This document shows positions 9,278 through 62,664 of a DNA stretch of 64,000 nt, one piece after another. This DNA is from Candidatus Bathyarchaeota archaeon. GTDB lineage: Archaea > Thermoproteota > Bathyarchaeia > Bathyarchaeales > Bathycorpusculaceae. The stretch is from NCBI GenBank assembly GCA_963815095.1, contig CAWFFH010000003.1, forward strand, positions 608,001 through 672,000. Reading direction: 5' to 3'. Each line of letters starts with the position of its first letter. Position 1 is the stretch's first letter. A model generated the notes under the pieces. That model searched no databases. It was not told the origin of the DNA and saw only the letters and a list, made by a program, of their open reading frames with translations. The position numbers and the translations under genes were made by a program.

Positions 9278-10567
9278 TTAGCGTTTTTTACCTATTTTAT
9301 CTCTGTTACCTATGTATTTTCTTAACACTTCAGGTATAATTATTGTTCCATCGGATTGCTGGTTGTTTTCCATTATTGCTACGATTGTTCTGCCTGTTGC
9401 AATAGCAGTAGAATTCAATGTGTGAACGAAGCCTTTTGGCGGTGCACCCTCTTTTTCACGATATTTAATTCCTAAACGTCTGCCTTGATAGTCAGTGCAG
9501 TTACTGCATGAAACCACTTCGCGGTAACCATTCTGCGCAGGCATCCAAGCTTCAATATCATACTTCTTTGCTGCAACGGTACCAATGTCACCCGTGCAAA
9601 CGTTAACAACTTGATAGGCTAAACCGAGTTTTTGCAAGATTCCTTCTGCGTTCTCTAAAAGTTCTTCGTGGAGTTTATATGAGTCTTCGGGTTTACAGAA
9701 AATGAACTGTTCGATTTTATTGAATTGGTGAGTGCGGAAGATGCCACGTGTGTCTTTTCCATGCGCACCTGCTTCTTTGCGGAAACAGGTGCTGATTCCA
9801 GCGAGTTTGACTGGCATTTCTTGTTCTTTTAGAGTTTCATTCATCAACATAGCTGCCATTGGATGCTCTGATGTGGCAATCATGTAGAGGTCTTCACCTT
9901 CAACCTTGTAGAGAACATCGCCAAAGTCGCCAAGTGAAGTTACGCCTTCGTACGCTTCCCGCTTCATCATGTAGGGTGGAACAATTGGTGTATAGCCTTT
10001 GTTTGAGAGCTCCTCTATAGCAAAGCACATCAAAGCCATGTCCAGCATGGCGACTTCATTTTTGAGAAAGAAGAACCTTGCGCCGCTGATTTTCCCAGCG
10101 CGTTCCATGTCGATTTGGTCTAACTCAAGAGCTAAATCTATATGGTTTTTTATCTGAAAAGAGAACTGTGGGATTGTTCCCCAAGTTTTCACTTGAACGT
10201 TATCCTTTGAGTCTTTTCCCATCGGAACCGAATCATCCAGTAAGTTTGGCAACCGCAAAAGGAAATCATGGATTTTCTGTTCCTGATTAACAACCTGTTT
10301 CTCTGTTAGCTTTATTTTCTGGTCGATGTTCTGTGCTCTTGAGAATTCGTCGGTTGCTTCTTGACCTGCCTGCTTTAGTTTAGCGATTTCTATGGTCACC
10401 AGTTTTCGTTCGTGACGCATCTCGTTTAGGTTGGTGTTGTTCACGCGCCACTCTTTATCTGTGGCAATCAATTCTTCGAGCATCTGGAGAACGTCTGGGT
10501 TGCCACGCTTCGCCAAATTAGCTTTTATAAGTTCAGGATTCTCGCGGATAAGCTTGATATCTAACAT
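9278..10567 (-). CDS. serS: Serine--tRNA ligase
   Basis: MLDIKLIRENP, ATSEHP, FRKEAGAHGKDTRGIFRTHQFNKIE, SCSNCTDYQ, HTLNST. Confidence 0.98.
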   Translation of the reverse strand: MLDIKLIRENPELIKANLAKRGNPDVLQMLEELIATDKEWRVNNTNLNEMRHERKLVTIEIAKLKQAGQEATDEFSRAQNIDQKIKLTEKQVVNQEQKIHDFLLRLPNLLDDSVPMGKDSKDNVQVKTWGTIPQFSFQIKNHIDLALELDQIDMERAGKISGARFFFLKNEVAMLDMALMCFAIEELSNKGYTPIVPPYMMKREAYEGVTSLGDFGDVLYKVEGEDLYMIATSEHPMAAMLMNETLKEQEMPVKLAGISTCFRKEAGAHGKDTRGIFRTHQFNKIEQFIFCKPEDSYKLHEELLENAEGILQKLGLAYQVVNVCTGDIGTVAAKKYDIEAWMPAQNGYREVVSCSNCTDYQGRRLGIKYREKEGAPPKGFVHTLNSTAIATGRTIVAIMENNQQSDGTIIIPEVLRKYIGNRDKIGKKR

Positions 10568-54446: not shown

Positions 54447-55433
54447 TTAGACAACTAAGTCGGCCATGTCGACGCTACGCTCGTAAATCTGCCTAAGGAA
54501 AGACACCGACGCCAAAATCTGAGGTATTAAATCCACAGACGAATCCTTCGCTAACTGTTCAATGTTTGAGGAGGTTGACTCTATTTTCTCTCGCAGGTTC
54601 CGAACGTTTTCGGCCACCGAAATGTCCTTGTTCAGGAAAGCTTTAATGGCTTGCTCATTAGCCTCGGAACAAGCAGATTGCAATTCAAACAACAACTTCC
54701 GAAGTTCATCAGATAATTTAATTCCGTTTAGCGCTATAGTGTTTGAGGCAAACTGAACACATGCGTCACCGATACCTTCAATTAAACTTGCAGCCAAACG
54801 ATAGTCTAAACATTCAATCGGTGTAATCCCAAGTTTATCGCTCAACCTTGGATTCTGAATAATTGTCCGAAGAGTTCTAACCAACAAAAAGTAAAGCCGA
54901 TTGCTTTCGTTATCACGCGAAACAACGCTCTTAGCTAACTCTGAATCGGTGTTAATAAAAGAGTTAGTTACGTCACGAATCATCCCTGCTACCAAACCGT
55001 GGTTTCGTTGCAAGATTTTTTGAGGTAAAAACCCAAATGGTTGTTGTGAGATACTTTGCAAAGAAATTTTGCAGATCGTCTCTTCTACAATCTCTAATCC
55101 CGCCAAAGAACTTGCGGTTGACTTAATTATTTTCCTTGCGTTTGCATCAATACGGTCCTTTGCCTCAATGTTAATTGTATCAAAGCCCAGAAGGTATCTA
55201 CCAACAATTTCACGCCCCAAAAAAGGGCCAACTCCCAAAGTGGCGACTTTAGGCTCAGGTTCAGCAGCATTTTTTGGGTCAACAAGAAGTTTACCGTCAC
55301 TGGTAACTTCCAAATTTACTTCAAAACCCTTCTTTAAACCGGACGCGTTGGCCCAATCTCTGGGTAAACAAACAAAGAAAGTCCCAGTTGGTGTTTGCTG
55401 TACTTTACGCGATTCACTCATCTGCGGTTTCAC
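54447..55433 (-). CDS. phoU: AbrB-PhoU phosphate uptake regulator
   Basis: RKVQQTPTGTFFVCLPRDW (AbrB) followed by two PhoU repeats. Confidence 0.88.
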   Translation of the reverse strand: MKPQMSESRKVQQTPTGTFFVCLPRDWANASGLKKGFEVNLEVTSDGKLLVDPKNAAEPEPKVATLGVGPFLGREIVGRYLLGFDTINIEAKDRIDANARKIIKSTASSLAGLEIVEETICKISLQSISQQPFGFLPQKILQRNHGLVAGMIRDVTNSFINTDSELAKSVVSRDNESNRLYFLLVRTLRTIIQNPRLSDKLGITPIECLDYRLAASLIEGIGDACVQFASNTIALNGIKLSDELRKLLFELQSACSEANEQAIKAFLNKDISVAENVRNLREKIESTSSNIEQLAKDSSVDLIPQILASVSFLRQIYERSVDMADLVV

Positions 55434-55659: not shown

Positions 55660-57246
55660 ATGAGCGCAGAAGAAAAACTCCAAAAAGCCATAGAGACATC
55701 TATTATGGCGGGTTATCAATTAAATAGCGAAGCCTTCGAGTTTCTCACTCAAAAAGCAGAAACTAACGACCCTGTCCTCATTATGGACTTGGCTCTTGCG
55801 AGAATCCAAGAGTTGCATGATAAACCGATGTTTATAGAAAAAAGCTTTCTAGAAGCGCTTTTGCAAGCCGCTGTACCTGCGCCACAACTTCAAGTCCCCG
55901 AGCGACAATACAGTCCACAACCAAGTATTCCGCAACAGCAATTGCGGCCACTTGAGGAATATCAAGATTCCAACGAAACCGAGTTTTATCCCTTCGCCAA
56001 AGATATACCGTCAGAACTCAATATTATCGATGATGCTACAGGAAAACTTACTTCGAATGGTACACTAGACGAGTACGTACTCTATTTTCAGGACCGCTTC
56101 AAACGTATCGAGAAACTGTTAAGACAAAGGATGGATGTTAAGGCAGCAACCTCAATTACGGAAGCCCTCAAGTCGCCACCAAAAACTAAGCTCAAAATCA
56201 TCTGTATGCTAACTGAGAAGAGGGACTCAAAAAATAACACAATCTTATCCGTCGAAGATTTGAATGGAAGTGCAACAATTCTTGTTTCTCAAAAAGCTCC
56301 TGAAGAAGTAAAGAAAAAAGCGCTCACTCTTCTGCCTGACCAAGTTTTCTGCGTAGCGGCTGTTAAAACAAGAGGCGACCTGCTGATGGCTGAAGACATT
56401 ATTTTTCCTGACGTAGGAAAAAAGATACCTCTGCGTGCGCAAGAACCCGTTTACGCTGTCCTTACATCAGACATCCATATTGGAAGTACAAAATTTACAA
56501 AAGAATCATTCAAGCGCTTTATCCTCTGGCTGCGAGGCAAATATGGAACCCCAGAAATGCGCCAAATAGCCGGCCGAGTAAAATATCTTCTCGTTGCGGG
56601 CGATATTGTAGATGGAATAGGTATTTATCCTGGTCAACAAAATGAGCTAACCATTCGAGATGTACATAAACAGTATAATTTTGCTATCAAATATCTTGAA
56701 AAAATTCCAGATTACATTGAAATTGTTTTGTCTCCAGGTAACCATGACGCCGCACGCAAATCATTACCTCAACCAGCAATACCAGAAGGATATCTGACAG
56801 AAATTCAAGGCAAAAAAAATATCCACTCAGTTGGCAGCCCATGTTACCTCAGCATTCACGGCGTAGAAGTACTCATGTATCACGGCAGAAGCCTCGACGA
56901 CATAGTTTCTGTTATTCCTGGAATGGATCATCAGCACCCAGAAAAATCCATGCGTCTACTCATGCAAGGACGACACTTAGCTCCTGTATACGGTGGAAAA
57001 ACCATGCTTTCCCCAGAAAGCCGCGATTATCTTGTAATTGATAAGGTTCCAGACATTTTTCATGCAGGGCACGTACATGTTAATGGACTTTGTAATTATC
57101 GCGGAGTACTTGTTGTGAACTCGGGCGGATGGCAAGACCAAACGGATTATATGGAAAAATTAGGGTTAGTTCCTACTCCAGGAATGGTGCCAGTGGTGAA
57201 TCTGCAAACACTACATACCACCGTTTTAGATTTTAATTTAAGTTAG
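55660..57246 (+). CDS. polB: DNA polymerase D small (proofreading) subunit DP1
   Basis: SDIHIGS, AGDIVDGIGIYPGQ, PGNHDA, YHGRSLDD, HLAP, HAGHVH. Confidence 0.96.
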   Translation: MSAEEKLQKAIETSIMAGYQLNSEAFEFLTQKAETNDPVLIMDLALARIQELHDKPMFIEKSFLEALLQAAVPAPQLQVPERQYSPQPSIPQQQLRPLEEYQDSNETEFYPFAKDIPSELNIIDDATGKLTSNGTLDEYVLYFQDRFKRIEKLLRQRMDVKAATSITEALKSPPKTKLKIICMLTEKRDSKNNTILSVEDLNGSATILVSQKAPEEVKKKALTLLPDQVFCVAAVKTRGDLLMAEDIIFPDVGKKIPLRAQEPVYAVLTSDIHIGSTKFTKESFKRFILWLRGKYGTPEMRQIAGRVKYLLVAGDIVDGIGIYPGQQNELTIRDVHKQYNFAIKYLEKIPDYIEIVLSPGNHDAARKSLPQPAIPEGYLTEIQGKKNIHSVGSPCYLSIHGVEVLMYHGRSLDDIVSVIPGMDHQHPEKSMRLLMQGRHLAPVYGGKTMLSPESRDYLVIDKVPDIFHAGHVHVNGLCNYRGVLVVNSGGWQDQTDYMEKLGLVPTPGMVPVVNLQTLHTTVLDFNLS

Positions 57247-58484
57247 GTGCCGGAACTTGGGTTTTTGCGGATAGCTTGGGGTGAATAGTCAATCAATCGG
57301 CTAAAGCGATTATCACCGACAAAGACATCTCTAATCAAGCTGCGAGAGATTTCCAGTCTAATTTTTTTGGTTCTTCCGTATCGACCCATGCTTACAACTT
57401 TGGCGTTTACAAGACCCATCGAATCAAGTTCGTTAACCAAAGTGCCTAGACGCCGTTGCGTTAGAAGCCCAGCGCCCATCTCACCGCATAATTCATTGTA
57501 TATATCGTAGATTTCCCCGGTTGTCGCACTTGACTTATTTAGATGGTAAACACTCAAGAGCACCAACTTTGAATGCAAAGTTAAATTATTGAGTGCTTCG
57601 ACAACTCGGTTGTGCTCAATATGCTTCTCAGCCTGACGCACGTGCTCTTCAGTAATAGTTTTTGCACCAAGCCGCTCCGCCACTTCTCCAGCAACACGCA
57701 ACAAATCTAGAGCTCGCCTAGCGTCTCCATGTTCTGCGGCAGCTAAAGCTGAGCAAATGCTCAATGCTGAATCTGATAAGACACCATCTTGGAAGGACAA
57801 CTTTGAGCGTTCAAGAAGTATATTTCGAAGTTCTCCAGCATCATATGGTCTGAAGACCAGTTCTTCTTCGCTAAGTGAACTGAAGACTCTTGGGTCCAAG
57901 AATTCTTTTAGGCGCAAATCGTTGGATATGCCGATTAGGGCAACTTTGCTTTTGGTTAATGTTTCGTTTATTCTTGTTAACTCATACATGAAGCCGTCTC
58001 CATGTTCTTTGATCAAGGCGTCAACTTCATCCAAAATAATGATGAATATTATTTTAGATTGATCTAACCCTATGCGGAACCGGTCAAAAACTTCGCCTGC
58101 CGACAAACCAGTGAAGGGAATGGACAAGCCTACACTTTGGCTTAGCGCCGCGAAAACCCTGTATTCTGAACCAGTCATTCGACAATTAATGTAGCAAAAT
58201 TTTACCTGTGCACCATATTCTTTTGCTTTGGATTCTAAATGGCTTAGCACATATTTTGTTACGGCAGTTTTTCCTGTTCCTGTTTTTCCGTAAATGAAAA
58301 TGTTGGAGCATCTTGAATCTCTTAGGACTGGAGCAACAGTTGCACCGAGCAATCTAATCTGGTCTTCTCGATGTGGAAGTTTATCCGGAAGATAATCATG
58401 CCTTAAGACCTCTCGATCTTTAAACAGTTTAACTCCGTTTACGAAGTTTTCGAATACATCATCTAGTACGCTTGAATTACCCAT
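57243..58484 (-). CDS. cdc6: Orc1/Cdc6 replication initiator
   Basis: LPHREDQI, YGKTGTGKT, ILDEVD, GDARRALDLLR, SMGRYGRTK. Confidence 0.98.
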   Translation of the reverse strand: MGNSSVLDDVFENFVNGVKLFKDREVLRHDYLPDKLPHREDQIRLLGATVAPVLRDSRCSNIFIYGKTGTGKTAVTKYVLSHLESKAKEYGAQVKFCYINCRMTGSEYRVFAALSQSVGLSIPFTGLSAGEVFDRFRIGLDQSKIIFIIILDEVDALIKEHGDGFMYELTRINETLTKSKVALIGISNDLRLKEFLDPRVFSSLSEEELVFRPYDAGELRNILLERSKLSFQDGVLSDSALSICSALAAAEHGDARRALDLLRVAGEVAERLGAKTITEEHVRQAEKHIEHNRVVEALNNLTLHSKLVLLSVYHLNKSSATTGEIYDIYNELCGEMGAGLLTQRRLGTLVNELDSMGLVNAKVVSMGRYGRTKKIRLEISRSLIRDVFVGDNRFSRLIDYSPQAIRKNPSSGT

Positions 58485-59282
58485 TTGCTTTCCCTCTTAT
58501 TCTTCAGAGGCAACACCGTTATTTCTTGTGGAACAGATAAAGGCTACACTACAAAAAACTGGTCTTAGAGCACAACAATCCTAAAAAACATTGAAAATAG
58601 CCAATATCTTTCAAATAAAGCGAGAGCACACACACACCACAGTTTCTACTGGAGGAAAAAGCTTGGTAAAAGAAAAACACTATTTATTGTATATATAATA
58701 ATATACTCTGATAGGTAAGGGGCAATTTGATATATTAATAATTGTTATCAAAGAAATTAGACAAATCATCTACAATAATTTTTTCAGCCTTTCCTAACTT
58801 CTTTTTGTCCCAAATACTTCGAGCGGAAACATAGGGGCCTGTGCGAGCGATTTTTCCATGGTAAATTACACTTGTTCAAGCTATTACATCTTGTTTTCTT
58901 TCATAACTTTCTTAATTTCTCAAGGAAGTTAATTTTCAACTTTTTAGTTAAAGTTTCTCGAAAAAACCGTTCACAAAATTGTGAATACATGTGAAATGGC
59001 AATGAAGTTGTCGCTTTATTGAGTCTATTTTCTGATAAATTACCCTTTTCCTGTCTTTAACAAGTGAATAAGGCACCCCTACACTTCTACTGGAAAAGCA
59101 TAACCAAGGCGAAACTGAATTATTTCAAGCATTTCGTTATACTGTGAAGCTGGTAATAACAGAATAACTTCAATTCTTAGCTATTACAGTATTATAAGCT
59201 TGATAACTGCCTATTTCATTCATCAGTTTCACCATAACAGCTATAAGGTGTGAAGTACTGACTTGTGAACAATCCTTAAGGT
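58485..59282. other. Chromosomal replication origin (oriC) with ORB elements and AT-rich DUE
   Basis: 800-bp non-coding region upstream of cdc6. ORB-like boxes: 58514-58534(-) GTTCCACAAGAAATAACGGTG; 58633-58654(-) CTCCAGTAGAAACTGTGGTGTG; 58817-58837(+) CTTCGAGCGGAAACATAGGGG; 59076-59096(-) TTTCCAGTAGAAGTGTAGGGG. An AT-rich stretch at about 58680-58750 lies between inverted ORBs. Confidence 0.85.
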
Positions 59283-59720
59283 GTGCAGCAAATGCCCGCT
59301 CGTAAAATGCGCATTGAGCTTTTCGATAGCGATGGTAATCGATATACTATTGCTTTTGAGGGTCAAGTGACTCGTGACAAAGCTCTTCGCCTTTTGGATC
59401 TGGTAGAGTTGCTTGGCAGTGCACCTGGAGAAGGCCTCACTACAAATGCAGGAAACACTTTACCAAATAAGGTTCTATCACGGTTCGAGAAAGTCCAGGT
59501 GGTTATCCACAAGAATTTCCCCTTGATTTGGTTCTCCTCAAAAGACATCCAGTCCATTTATGAACAAGAACTTAAAGAACCGGTAAGTCTCAGCACAGTT
59601 TCAACCTACCTTTCCAGGATGGCTGTAAAAGGTATGTTGCTTAGGACCGGAGGCCAAAACAACCTCAAGTACAAGACTGCCCCAAACATCTCCCCTGCTA
59701 TTAAACAACGCATAAAATAA
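59283..59720 (+). CDS. Origin-adjacent protein with C-terminal winged HTH
   Basis: N-terminal RIELFDSDGNRYTIAFEG domain; C-terminal FSSKDIQSIYEQ...SLSTVSTYLSRMAVKGMLLRTG...KY wHTH. Confidence 0.8.
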   Translation: MQQMPARKMRIELFDSDGNRYTIAFEGQVTRDKALRLLDLVELLGSAPGEGLTTNAGNTLPNKVLSRFEKVQVVIHKNFPLIWFSSKDIQSIYEQELKEPVSLSTVSTYLSRMAVKGMLLRTGGQNNLKYKTAPNISPAIKQRIK

Positions 59721-59779
59721 CTCCCAAGGTTCACAATCATTTCACAAAAAGACAATTATTGAACCCTTTAAACCGTTAA

Positions 59780-60583
59780 CTATGTTTGAGCGGAGGGGTT
59801 CACGACTTTTTGCAGAAGAGCTTCCATCTCCTTTTTGATGCTGTACCTGAAAGGAATTTTACCAGCCTCCCTCTCCAAGTATCCCTCTTCATAGAGTTTC
59901 TTCATTAACCGAGCTGTATGCTCCCTACTGAGTTGCACTATTTCTTTGATTTCAGGAGCCGTCTTCGCTCCCTCTTTAGCGAGGAGTTCTAAGACTGTGA
60001 TTTCCGTTTCGGTTAAAGCTGCCAACGCTTTATCCCGTTTTATGGGTATAGGCGGTAGGACAATGTCGTTCCTGGTTTCATTTTGTGGTGGAACAACTGA
60101 TATTTTCTTAATTTGCTCTTCAAACACTGTTATTTTATTTCTCAAAGTTTCTTGTGTAGATTCGATGTCTTTTAGTTTTGCTTCTATTCCTGAGAGCCCA
60201 GACAGGACTGTGCTGTTGTTTTGTGTGTAGTCGGATAAGTTTTGTGTAACAGTTTGTGAAATAGCTTGATGTGATTGGCTGAGTGCACCGAGTTGTTGCT
60301 CGATGTTCTCTGCTTTCCTGAAACTCACGTTTGCTGTGTTATAGCTTCCTTCAACTCTTGATACCATTGTATCAAACTTGTCTGATTCACGTTTAAGTTC
60401 ACGATTAAAACTCAGCACGATATCTTCGATAAAGTTTTTGGCTTTTTCGTATTCTTTGTGTGCAAGGCGTACCTGCTTATAGTACTCATATGCAGCTATT
60501 ACTGTAACAGCTAGTAGAACGCCCAAGATTAATGGTGTGAGATCAATCGTGATTTTTTTCTCCGTGATTTGTATGTGACTCAA
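59780..60583 (-). CDS. Membrane-anchored coiled-coil protein with C-terminal winged HTH
   Basis: N-terminal TM (LILGVLLAVTVIAAY), about 130-aa heptad-rich region, LTETEITVLELL...TAPEIKEIVQLSREHTARLMKKLYEEGYLERE...PFRY. Confidence 0.8.
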   Translation of the reverse strand: MSHIQITEKKITIDLTPLILGVLLAVTVIAAYEYYKQVRLAHKEYEKAKNFIEDIVLSFNRELKRESDKFDTMVSRVEGSYNTANVSFRKAENIEQQLGALSQSHQAISQTVTQNLSDYTQNNSTVLSGLSGIEAKLKDIESTQETLRNKITVFEEQIKKISVVPPQNETRNDIVLPPIPIKRDKALAALTETEITVLELLAKEGAKTAPEIKEIVQLSREHTARLMKKLYEEGYLEREAGKIPFRYSIKKEMEALLQKVVNPSAQT

Positions 60584-60692
60584 CCGTGATTTATGGTGAT
60601 TTCAGTGGTTGCATCACATATCACAGTATTTCCATGGAGTAATAAGGTTATCGGTGACATGAAATAATGTAATCTATGACATCACACATCAC
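60537..60692. repeat. Array of GTGA/TCAC motifs (array A)
   Basis: 11 copies in 156 bp (60537, 60549, 60564, 60575, 60586, 60596, 60614, 60621, 60654, 60682, 60689); several spaced 10-11 bp apart. Confidence 0.75.
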
Positions 60693-60841
60693 AATAATAC
60701 CCTAATAGCTCTCCGTCAAGACTTTCATTATGAACTAAAGGCTGAGGATTAGCCTTATTTTGCCAATTAATACTTAAAATAGTCATTTCAGAATAACTTA
60801 ATTTAATGTATCAAAACACTGAAAAAATCATGGAAAAATCT

Positions 60842-60872
60842 GTGATTTGTGACGTCACAAAGGCTCTTGTGA
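60842..60872. repeat. GTGA motif cluster with perfect 16-bp palindrome TTTGTGACGTCACAAA (array B)
   Basis: Palindrome at 60846-60861 plus flanking TGTGAT copies at 60841 and 60868. Confidence 0.7.
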
Positions 60873-61352
60873 TGGGCTAGAAAGCCGTTTCAGGCTTGTT
60901 TCAAGCTCATTTCGAATGATTTCAATGACTTTTAGATGGTCTTTTAGTTCCTCTTCCTTTCCCGGTATGTTCTGGTGAGCCTCCACATAATCGTGTAGTT
61001 TATTGGCTATTTCGAGATACGGGTCAAGAGTAGAGCTCTCAAACACACCCAAATACCCCAAAAGTAGGACTGTATAGATCGATTTTATAACGTTTTCTTT
61101 GGACTGTCTTAAGGTCCTATTAAAAGAACCGCGGCTTATTTTAGCCTTTGTTAAGCGTAAAGCAGCCTTTTCATCGTAATTTAGCTGTTTGTCTGATATA
61201 TTTTCGGCCAAAACGTCAATTAACAGTGTTTCAAGCTGTGTTTTTGTTAATTGGCTGTTTTTAGCCAGGACTTGCACAATGGGGTCGTTTAATGCCCCGC
61301 TTAACCATGCTGTAACACCGTCTTTTAACTTCAAATCTTCGTGTTCCTCCAT
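60855..61352 (-). CDS. Hypothetical protein with probable HTH
   Basis: LTKTQLETLL...YDEKAALR...ISRGSFNRTLRQSKENV resembles a Bat/sigma-region-4-type HTH; helical C-terminus. Confidence 0.72.
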   Translation of the reverse strand: MEEHEDLKLKDGVTAWLSGALNDPIVQVLAKNSQLTKTQLETLLIDVLAENISDKQLNYDEKAALRLTKAKISRGSFNRTLRQSKENVIKSIYTVLLLGYLGVFESSTLDPYLEIANKLHDYVEAHQNIPGKEEELKDHLKVIEIIRNELETSLKRLSSPSQEPL

Positions 61353-61724
61353 AGTCTTAATGGATACAGTTTTGTATACTAATCCATGTTTTTAACCTTT
61401 GCACTAGCCAAAAGCCTCAATTTCTCGTTTGGAAGAAGCTAAAATTGAAGTCGTTTTACGCAAACAAAGCGTTTTACTAACTTTATTGGCTATTCGTGGC
61501 AAGAAAAGCCCATTTAACATAATAAAGGCTAATTTCTTGGCAATTTCTTGTGTTAGCACGCCTCAACTTTACACAAAAAATGCTCTTTTGCAAACCCTCC
61601 TGAAAGTAAAAACTATTCATTTTGGCAATTTTAAAGAAATGTCTCTAACTTTTTCTTGTTTAATATCTTGCTTAAACACAGTTTTACTGCAACAACTCCC
61701 TGTAACAATATCCAAAAAAACCGC

Positions 61725-61832
61725 GTGACATCACCAAATCTGCGTGATTTTACCATAAGTCACTTGATATCACGATGATGTGATACACTTGTGATGTTAA
61801 ACTTCAACGTCCCGTTGTGAGTGTGATATCTC
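61725..61832. repeat. Array of GTGA-NN-TCAC motifs (array C)
   Basis: 9 GTGA/TCAC copies in about 105 bp, including GTGACATCAC 61725, TTGATATCAC 61764 and GTGATATCTC 61823. Confidence 0.75.
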
Positions 61833-62664
61833 AGATTTGCTCTGAAAGGTGCTTTAATTCATCGAAAAGTTCAGGTCGTAAGTCTCTCAAAGTCGGGATA
61901 AATGTCTCAGCTGCTCTTAAATCACCAAAATCCACGTCACAGAAGACAAAATCTTCTTCATCGTACTTTGCTTTGGCTGCAATGTCGCCCGTTGGACAAA
62001 CAAGTCGGCTCCCTCCCCAAAACTGTAGTCCATCTTCAACACCTGCAAGGTTAACGTACGCAAGAAATGCCGTGTTTTCAAGTGCTCGAGCAGAAGTTAG
62101 GATTTCAAAGTAACCTCTCCTTACAGCCGGGGATGCGGAAATACAAACAATCAACTGTGCACCCTTGAGGCGTGTCAGCCTAAATACTTCTGGAAAGAAG
62201 ACATCGTAGCAAATAGATAATCCAATATTGCCTAATTCTGTTTGGAAAGTTGCTGTTTCATACCCTGGGCGAAAATACCTTTTCTCTTCAAAGACGCTGT
62301 GAGTAGGCAGATACATCTTGCGGTATTTACCGATTAAACCTTTGGGACCAATGAAGACAGCTGTGTTAAAGATTGTTGCTTGGGTTTTTTTGCTTAACTC
62401 CGGCATCCCAAAAATAATGTGCATACCCGTCTTCTTTGCTAAAGCCTCAATTTTATGGGTTGAAGGTCCAGGTATCGGCTCCGCAAGCTCGTAAACTTGA
62501 TCTAAGATGACGTAACCCGTTAAAGACATCTCCGGAAAAATAATTAGGTCTGCACCTTGCCCCTTGGCTTTGATAGTTAGTTCTTCTATCTTCTGCAGAT
62601 TCATGCTTTTGTTTTCGCGTTTGCTACTTATTTGGGCAAGAGCGAGTCTAATCTTATCTTTCAT
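61831..62664 (-). CDS. Carbon-nitrogen hydrolase (nitrilase family; likely glutaminase partner of NadE)
   Basis: FPEMSLTGY, YRKMYLP...FEEKRYF, ICYDVFFPE (E-K-C triad); directly downstream of nadE. Confidence 0.9.
   Translation of the reverse strand: MKDKIRLALAQISSKRENKSMNLQKIEELTIKAKGQGADLIIFPEMSLTGYVILDQVYELAEPIPGPSTHKIEALAKKTGMHIIFGMPELSKKTQATIFNTAVFIGPKGLIGKYRKMYLPTHSVFEEKRYFRPGYETATFQTELGNIGLSICYDVFFPEVFRLTRLKGAQLIVCISASPAVRRGYFEILTSARALENTAFLAYVNLAGVEDGLQFWGGSRLVCPTGDIAAKAKYDEEDFVFCDVDFGDLRAAETFIPTLRDLRPELFDELKHLSEQI

Follow-up and report, generated by a model that had tools for sequence, protein, structure and literature searches.

Introduction

Membrane-anchored DNA-binding proteins with origin-proximal sites are a known kind of system, to which RacA, RocS, and Noc belong together with RicO/ricS. 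The closest functional analogue of the locus described here is RicO/ricS of Staphylococcus aureus (bioRxiv 10.64898/2026.03.06.710092), in which one protein unites a domain for DNA binding with a coiled coil and a membrane-binding element, specific sites lie near oriC, and origins are proposed to be kept at the membrane with no motor of their own. Here, we describe three uncharacterized open reading frames (ORFs), ORF145, ORF267, and ORF165, and the repeat arrays around them, beside a candidate replication origin of a Candidatus Bathyarchaeota archaeon (assembly GCA_963815095.1, contig CAWFFH010000003.1). The window, by which we mean the whole stretch of 64,000 nucleotides that was analyzed (G000:C3:608001-672000), belongs to a genome of 2.69 Mb in nine contigs, and positions are those of the window unless a contig position is given. 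Our tentative reading is that the locus is an ancient origin-flanking module in which a membrane-anchored winged helix-turn-helix (wHTH) protein, ORF267, would hold origin-proximal DNA at the membrane and autoregulate, and ORF145 would bind GTGAA sites among the origin recognition boxes (ORBs).

Several features set this module apart from RicO/ricS. ORF267 is not homologous to RicO, and its domain order is reversed relative to the one outlined in the preprint, with the transmembrane (TM) helix N-terminal and the wHTH C-terminal. The anchor of ORF267 is an integral TM helix, whereas that of RicO is described as an amphipathic helix, and the sites here lie within ≈1.3 kb beside oriC, whereas ricS is described as nine sites spread over ≈700 kb. 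Furthermore, the arrays here overlap the promoter of ORF267 itself, and the archaeal module is known from sequence alone.

ParR–parC, TubR–tubC, and the SegB sites of Sulfolobus are pairs of an iterated-site centromere and its adaptor, and TubR is itself a winged helix protein. Like plasmid centromeres, the locus has short iterated sites about one helical turn apart around the promoter of the adaptor gene, array 2 (see below) spanning the start and promoter of ORF267 with spacings of 10 to 15 bp, and a small DNA-binding adaptor. It differs in that the adaptor is membrane-anchored and in that a scan of the window with PF13614 and PF01656 returned no match to either family, the nearest one lying at contig position 681927, and no ParA, ParM, TubZ, or SegA motor is present there; a preliminary description of this DNA had likewise listed no ParA-type ATPase in the window. 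The HerA-type ATPase of some relatives was not found in this genome (G000) with the HerA protein of locus L014 as query.

Transmembrane transcription regulators (TTRs), which include ToxR and CadC as well as the archaeal ArnR and ArnR1, carry a DNA-binding domain and a TM segment in one polypeptide and are able to act on DNA from the membrane; a census of TTRs is available (PMC10269533). ORF267 has this composition, a DNA-binding domain with at least one TM segment; it differs in having an outside tail of at most ≈16 residues, and thus no extracytoplasmic sensing domain of the ToxR/CadC type, in the N-terminal position of its TM helix, and in having no evident regulon outside its own locus. 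The terms TrmB, MarR, Thaumarchaeota, and Bathyarchaeota have zero occurrences each in the consulted passages of the census, the tables of which may list the family.

Precedents for extra protein-binding repeats within or beside an archaeal origin are UBP/ucm at Sulfolobus origins (PMC12141716) and the datA-like ORB cluster of Haloarcula oriC2 (PMC4010727). UBP is a protein of 111 residues that is described as binding DNA via β-hairpins at hundreds of sites genome-wide (PMC12141716), whereas the proteins here are of the wHTH or HTH type and their sites are local; the cluster at Haloarcula oriC2 differs in consisting of ORBs bound by Cdc6 itself (PMC4010727). We found no description of the gene trio or of the arrays in a literature search that left subscription journals and supplements largely outside. 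Chromosome positioning and segregation in archaea outside the Sulfolobales are largely unknown, and the consulted text of a cell-cycle review names no Thaumarchaeota or Bathyarchaeia system (PMC7617429). The present analysis delivers three uncharacterized genes, defined DNA sites, clear synteny with the origin, and presence in amoA-bearing genomes of another class, and makes the tether and origin-binding hypotheses directly testable.

Repeat arrays at an origin candidate

The elements of the locus, in order of position, are as follows.

55660–57246, plus strand: PolD small subunit DP1 (Pfam DNA_pol_E_B, E 3.4e-15)
57243–58484, minus strand: Orc1/Cdc6 initiator (Pfam Cdc6_lid, E 8.4e-25; Cdc6_C, E 2.5e-24)
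58485–59100, no strand: oriC candidate (sequence reading; conservation in 82 relatives; ORB regular expression match at 59076)
58970–59272, no strand: array 1, GTGAA/TTCAC cluster (top 320-bp interval; conserved blocks)
59283–59720, plus strand: ORF145 (ORF call)
59780–60583, minus strand: ORF267 (ORF call)
60537–60694, no strand: array 2, covering the ORF267 promoter and the 5′ end of the gene with its start codon
60841–60875, no strand: TGTGATTTGTGACGTCACA and TTGTGATGG, overlapping the ORF165 stop codon
60855–61352, minus strand: ORF165 (ORF call)
61359–61395, no strand: conserved block AATGGATACAGTTTTGTATACT...TTTTTAA, directly upstream of the ORF165 start
61724–61830, no strand: array 3, with CGTGACATCAC, GTGATTT, ATCAC, TGTGAT, TGTGAT, and GTGAGTGTGAT (motif positions, conservation)

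GTGA/TCAC occurs 46 times within 58485–61832, and the two densest 150-bp intervals of the whole genome for this motif both lie here, at 60546–60696 (10 copies) and 61685–61835 (nine copies), against a background with a mean of 0.78, a next best value of six, and 12 intervals at six or more. For GTGAA/TTCAC, the top 320-bp interval genome-wide starts at 58956 (eight copies; mean 0.66; next best six). Alignments of the intergenic regions of 81 to 88 relatives show the motif blocks conserved at 80% or more, and k-mer enrichment across relatives returns the core ATCACA/TGTGAT at ≈10-fold over the locus background. Chance or low complexity as the origin of the repeats is ruled out by the genome-wide maxima together with this conservation. 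The preliminary description had anticipated both a genome-wide motif peak at the locus and conservation of the motif in relatives, and both were borne out, the motif standing at the same positions in the alignments and recurring in other families. It had also described the arrays as one iterated motif, GTGA-NN-TCAC. The repeats are real, but they fall into two variants, GTGAA in and beside oriC and at the ORF145 promoter, and GTGAT/ATCACA in arrays 2 and 3; the exact palindrome occurs only twice in the region (60849 and 61725; 16 copies in the genome), and the iterated unit is the half-site.

Array 1 comprises TTCACAAAATTGTGAATACATGTGAAAT at 58970–58997, a GTGAA at 59064 that abuts an ORB, TGTGAAG at 59143, and, at 59228–59272, TTCACCATAACAGCTATAAGGTGTGAAG...TGTGAACA, which form an inverted pair with a TATA-like CTATAAG between them, immediately ahead of ORF145; the GTGAA motif of this array recurs in other orders and families. 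Array 2 opens with six GTGA(T) half-sites that start between 60537 and 60596 at spacings of 12, 15, 11, 11, and 10 bp, followed by ATCACATATCAC (60613) and ATGACATCACACATCACA (60676–60693), with ATCAC-N2-ATCAC pairs. The element at 60841–60875 is ≈90% or more conserved in 88 sequences, is present in other families, and holds the sole genome copy (1/1) of the TGTGAYRTCACA palindrome. Array 3 is separated from the start of ORF165 by ≈370 bp on the upstream side and directly adjoins the CN-hydrolase gene at its 3′ end. A recurring unit, the palindrome TGTGA-YR-TCACA with a third half-site 7 bp off, is found in array 3, at the stop codon of ORF165, and ahead of the promoter of ORF267; other families of the order have it too. 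Two of the four genome copies of GTGAYRTCAC and two of the three of ATCAC[AG]NATCAC are at the locus.

A 798-bp intergenic region separates Cdc6 from ORF145, and ORF165 is followed, after a gap of 478 bp, by the CN-hydrolase and NAD synthase genes, both on the minus strand. Between cdc6 and ORF145, an AT-rich stretch (≈58680–58780) has ORB-like blocks on both sides, at 58503–58560, 58627–58657, 58818–58837 (opposite orientation), and 59074–59098, the last of which reads CACCCC-TACAC-TTCTACTGGAAAAG; across 82 aligned relatives, each of them is conserved at 80% or more. This is the layout of an archaeal ORB/Cdc6 origin, an AT-rich stretch flanked by inverted ORBs next to cdc6, where we take the blocks to be ORBs by comparison with a general, not a computed, consensus; 58485–59100 is an ORB-type origin candidate adjoining cdc6. 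A crude ORB regular expression, which recovers one of the ≈4 ORB-like blocks in the window, has 12 distinct sites genome-wide (17 listed matches, five of them overlapping or repeated), and its matches adjoin cdc6 in the window and in loci L135, L139, L141, L142, L145, and L146. GC skew along contig C3 has no clear turning point at the locus and is uninformative.

ORF267 joins a TM helix, a coiled coil, and a winged helix

ORF267 has one hydrophobic segment (≈residues 11–35; KD19 maximum 2.3), and its residues 190–250 match both TrmB (PF01978; 29.6 bits, cut-off 25.6) and MarR (PF01047; 29.2 bits, cut-off 24.6), the same Pfam families that are precomputed for its homologues. All PDB matches to the middle of the protein are coiled coils (tropomyosin, chemoreceptor, and SMC arms; best E 1.6e-6). 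Canonical soluble MarR proteins have N- and C-terminal dimerization helices around the wHTH. ORF267 departs from this layout, its wHTH being C-terminal and preceded by a TM helix and then a coiled coil whose length varies. In an alignment of 35 homologues at three levels of kinship, the N-terminal hydrophobic segment is present in 35 of 35, the recognition helix residues R220, E221, H222, R225, and K228 are invariant, and the coiled coil ranges from ≈130 residues down to ≈0. Some 10 to 16 residues precede the TM helix, and fewer do so in many homologues, too few for a sensor domain on the outside. A complex prediction of ORF267 (residues 36–267) with ORF165 scored 0.00 against a mark of 0.32, which speaks neither for nor against binding.

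The deposited gene call for ORF267 is 248 residues long and starts 19 codons later than the 267-residue reading, which puts an uncertainty of ≈19 codons on the position of the start. At 60524–60583, the GTGAT repeats themselves encode the first ≈12 codons of the 267-residue reading (MSHIQITEKKIT), and several homologues have N termini resembling SH..IT. JGI names for the homologues include "chromosome segregation ATPase" and "prefoldin"; we gave these no weight, as they are automatic and appear to follow the coiled coil.

ORF145 and ORF165

An AlphaFold2 (AF2) model of ORF145, with a predicted local distance difference test score (pLDDT) of 76, consists of a β-β-α unit (residues 7–45), a disordered linker (47–62), and a winged helix (63–135). 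The best VIA match of the winged helix is the Fur DNA-binding domain (Z 11.2; root-mean-square deviation (rmsd) 2.5 over 70 residues), Foldseek matches include ZitR, Fur, and MecI (best E 4.8e-3), and Pfam returns a weak Penicillinase_R match below cut-off (E 0.0046). The ORF145 alignment, A5, contains 27 sequences.

The AF2 model of ORF165 is all-α, with seven helices, a pLDDT of 89.6, and a C-terminal helical hairpin. ORF165 has no Pfam match, a Foldseek comparison with the PDB returned nothing at E ≤ 1e-3, and a PDB profile search returned nothing below E 0.6. Wide VIA matches are mostly to a generic C-terminal helical hairpin (Z ≈7–8, within the stated noise range); the EsrB DNA-binding domain aligns at rank 42 (Z 7.2; rmsd 3.2 over 64 residues). 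Six of 39 family members have weak HTH matches, to HTH_10 (three), DUF134 (two), and Sigma70_r4 (one), all at E ≥ 0.04; the Atlas clusters of ORF165 are all annotated "hypothetical protein," and a distant Atlas cluster (score 0.78) carries Sigma70_r4 on 14% of its members. By our reading of the alignment, the family pattern is LTxxQxE...(S/T)(R/K)G(A/S)(F/Y)xRxxxQ. A LuxR/sigma-r4-like HTH at ≈residues 32–106 is thus possible and weakly supported. Of the HTH segments that the preliminary description assigned to all three genes, those of ORF145 (winged helix) and ORF267 (MarR/TrmB) hold up well, and that of ORF165 is as weakly supported as just stated. ORF165 defines a widespread family of uncharacterized proteins, a finding that stands even if the tether idea fails.

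The conserved block at 61359–61395 is the probable ORF165 core promoter. The region from the ORF165 start to array 3 (61400–61720, ≈370 bp) contains no conserved ORF; it has conserved blocks at 61514–61540 and 61565–61592 (AACTTTACACAAAAAATGCTCTTTT) and no Rfam match, the one sub-threshold hit overall being RsaOG (26.6 bits against a gathering score of 50). A small RNA, a long 5′ leader, or another promoter might lie in this region.

Conservation of the trio beside cdc6

ORF267 homologues are present in 36 of 41 genomes drawn from the genus and the order. ORF267 and ORF165 are adjacent in all 20 order genomes with fetched loci, and Cdc6 adjoins the trio in 17 of these, the other three loci reaching a contig edge. 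The full order DP1-Cdc6-ORF145-ORF267-ORF165-CN-hydrolase-NAD synthase is found in 88 of 101 loci, namely the window and L013–L112, which come mostly from one genus and are not de-duplicated by genome. The ORF165 family is found in 169 of 201 sampled genomes of the class (115 of the 126 of high quality), with one match in almost every carrier, and in 126 of 251 genomes of the phylum draw, in some families only.

In other orders of Bathyarchaeia (20 loci of 19 kb), Cdc6 is present in 14 loci and Cdc6 or DP1 in 18. In classes other than Bathyarchaeia, Cdc6 lies beside the genes in six of 16 loci; G387 makes a seventh, with the trio at the end of its single contig and Cdc6-DP1 at the start of that contig, in the same order across the junction. 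Archaeal AmoA is encoded in G387, G377, and G246, which marks these as ammonia oxidizers, of a lineage that we take to include cultivated ones. Synteny of the trio with cdc6 and DP1 thus extends across Bathyarchaeia and to amoA-bearing genomes of another class, as the preliminary description had anticipated, and all of its computable predictions came out in its favor.

Variants of this arrangement are as follows. One of the loci L013–L112 has the order ORF145-Cdc6-DP1-ORF267-ORF165-CN-hydrolase-NAD synthase, which would be an inversion of the DP1-Cdc6-oriC-ORF145 block. In family f24, four loci (L114, L117, L125, and L130) have the order NAD synthase-ORF165-ORF267-DP1 with GTGA arrays of nine to 10 copies per 150 bp and no Cdc6, ORF145, or ORB hit in 19 kb; here the arrays may have remained beside the TM-wHTH gene when origin and initiator relocated. 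Seven of the 20 order relatives have a gene pair between ORF145 and ORF267 (L014:5979–8514, L015:6018–8595, L016, L017, L018, L020, and L023), encoding a NurA-like protein (PF09376, E 9.4e-4, below cut-off) and a HerA/DUF87 ATPase (PF01935, E 9.8e-13). The L015 pair has no tblastn match in 36 class- and phylum-level loci. An FtsK/HerA-type ATPase in exactly this place may have a connection with the module, or its insertion here may be unrelated.

The two repeat variants and their candidate proteins

Of 43 loci with a TM-wHTH gene nearby, 32 reach a density of at least seven half-sites per 150 bp less than 1.5 kb from ORF165, and of 12 loci without such a gene, none does; the median maxima per 150 bp are 9 and 4.5, respectively, and background maxima have a median of 5. 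These counts come from related genomes and are not independent, and that GTGAT arrays track the TM-wHTH gene and not ORF165 is suggestive only. Whole-genome searches of five genomes lacking the TM-wHTH gene with the A6 profile gave weak matches in three (E 1.1e-4 to 6.6e-4, at coiled-coil positions) and none in two.

On the origin side, Bathyarchaeia and the families f49, f55, and f48 have GTGAA as the repeat. In the three amoA-bearing loci, it is GTTAA/TTAAC, with 12 to 15 copies against ≈0.8 expected, and 4 of 4, 5 of 5, and 4 of 5 of the GTTAAC palindromes belong to it. In the same clade, LST in the ORF145 helix is replaced by LSI or LSV, and in G387 GTGAT is kept upstream of the TM-wHTH gene and the recognition helix of the latter is nearly unchanged (SREHTSRLMKKL). 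The origin motif may thus have changed together with the ORF145 helix, a lead only, from a single clade contrast, and the two variants probably serve two different proteins. Even if the tether fails, these lineages would have, in the GTGAA/GTTAA repeats that stand among the ORBs, a second origin element that is conserved.

Proposed mechanism and alternative explanations

In the reading that we favor, ORF267 would be bitopic: only a very short tail would lie outside, the TM helix would follow, and the coiled coil would extend into the cytoplasm and end in the winged helix, so that a membrane element and a DNA-binding domain are combined in one protein, as in known tethers. As a coiled-coil dimer or oligomer, it would bind the GTGAT/ATCACA half-sites and TGTGA-YR-TCACA palindromes of arrays 2 and 3, a pairing that co-occurrence suggests. 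These candidate sites are genome maxima 1.5 to 3.3 kb from oriC and are found almost only here; if ORF267 is anchored and occupies them, the bound origin-proximal DNA must be held at the membrane. The same occupancy would repress or tune the promoters of ORF267 and ORF165, and since the arrays overlap the ORF267 promoter, autoregulation would accompany tethering. ORF145 would bind the GTGAA sites that stand among the ORBs and on both sides of the TATA box of its own gene, and in this way mark the origin or modulate it. ORF165 would act as a helical HTH-like co-factor of ORF267; the two genes are directly adjacent in L137 (ORF165 stop at 9931, TM-wHTH start at 9932) and are also neighbors in four other loci like it. 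No motor ATPase would be involved in G000. The preliminary description had likewise suggested a role in tethering or segregation, which the present results support in part.

This proposal overlaps with two others, of which the first, rather unlikely in our estimation, is a plain transcriptional cassette: transcription factors that regulate themselves and each other, with the repeats as operators and a position at oriC that is inherited or a convenience of gene dosage. Repeats do lie across TATA-like boxes and start regions of the three genes and across one of their stop codons, and arrays at or near promoters mean that autoregulation explains part of them. TTRs are widespread in archaea according to the census text (PMC10269533), membrane-bound ArnR-type regulators are reported in Sulfolobus (PMC6396743), and the gene pair lies away from cdc6 in some lineages. 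On the other hand, ≈32 half-sites in ≈780 bp of noncoding DNA are far above the number in usual operators, array 3 is ≈370 bp from the ORF165 start, the GTGAA sites between the ORBs are 200 to 300 bp from the ORF145 start, ORF267 lacks an outside sensor domain, and there are few sites elsewhere in the genome and so no evident regulon. Trans-acting factors need no oriC neighborhood, yet the order is kept in two classes, for which a cis role of the sites toward the origin would be the simplest explanation.

Several observations nonetheless weigh against tethering by ORF267. Some of array 2, and likewise the GTGAA pair of 59228–59272, occupies the positions expected of operators of the ORF267 and ORF145 promoters, where autoregulation alone explains them, and the membrane protein could be inactive while anchored, acting only after release. 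Kinship among the genomes makes the co-occurrence counts overstate the case, the TM-wHTH is not universal (five sampled Bathyarchaeia genomes have no TM-wHTH match with the A6 profile), the arrays are weak in L137, L138, and L147 (three to five per 150 bp), and the putative pairing of proteins with motifs is read from only two clades. In the other lineages outside Bathyarchaeia, either ORF165 and the TM-wHTH or the ORF145/ORF165 pair occurs with no cdc6 or ORB hit within ≈9 kb; for ORF165 and the TM-wHTH, this is the case in L133, L137, L138, L140, L143, L147, and L148.

Less probable than the cassette is control or titration of initiation, in which ORF145, perhaps with the others, would modulate Cdc6/MCM and the arrays would form a sink that doubles on replication and times the cell cycle. 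Comparable cases are E. coli datA and, at Haloarcula oriC2, the ORB cluster on the downstream side, which has a titration model of its own (PMC4010727). GTGAA abuts the ORBs (59064 against 59074–59098) and lies inside the origin, equivalent GTTAA sites flank the ORBs in an amoA-bearing genome, and UBP/ucm, an accessory origin-binding system, is described as required in Sulfolobus (PMC12141716). Titration leaves the constant membrane anchor of one protein unexplained and is compatible with tethering, not exclusive of it. Finally, a remnant of an integrated plasmid or virus, with the arrays as iterons and the genes as Rep or partition proteins, is very improbable, its iteron-like direct repeats ≈11 bp apart, weak matches between its wHTH and PHROG families (best E 1.6e-4; none for ORF145 and none below E 0.1 for ORF165), and NurA/HerA pair inserted in seven of 20 relatives being set against a near-universal ORF165 with one match in almost every class genome that carries the family, a trio at the same chromosomal position beside cdc6, and no integrase or tRNA boundary seen, with no search aimed at either. 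Conservation across the class at one chromosomal place led us to reject the mobile-element reading.

A broader version of the tether, which we regard as doubtful, is that Bathyarchaeia and ammonia-oxidizing Nitrososphaeria might share a motor-less handling of the origin, one wHTH protein clamping an array to the membrane and a second wHTH protein sitting among the ORBs. Such a clamp, if true, would give the origin its position and might also segregate it, as the old replicon model has it; it would be the first archaeal origin–membrane tether and would add a new class of origin element besides the ORB.

Further observations

NCBIfam and PHROGs returned weak, generic matches only. A scan for bacterial-type promoters and terminators, which is not applicable to archaea, was at background (11 against 8.8 expected). 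Outside the window, at contig position C3:1004297, there is a well-formed ORB-like string (CCCCTCATTTCCACTGGA), one of the 12 distinct sites of the ORB regular expression, which may mark a second origin. Beside DP1, at 54447–55433 on the minus strand, lies a gene for a 328-residue protein with a MazE/AbrB-like N terminus and two PhoU domains; its position is the same in L139, in several further orders of Bathyarchaeia, and in the majority of loci from the order itself, and it may be part of the same conserved origin block.

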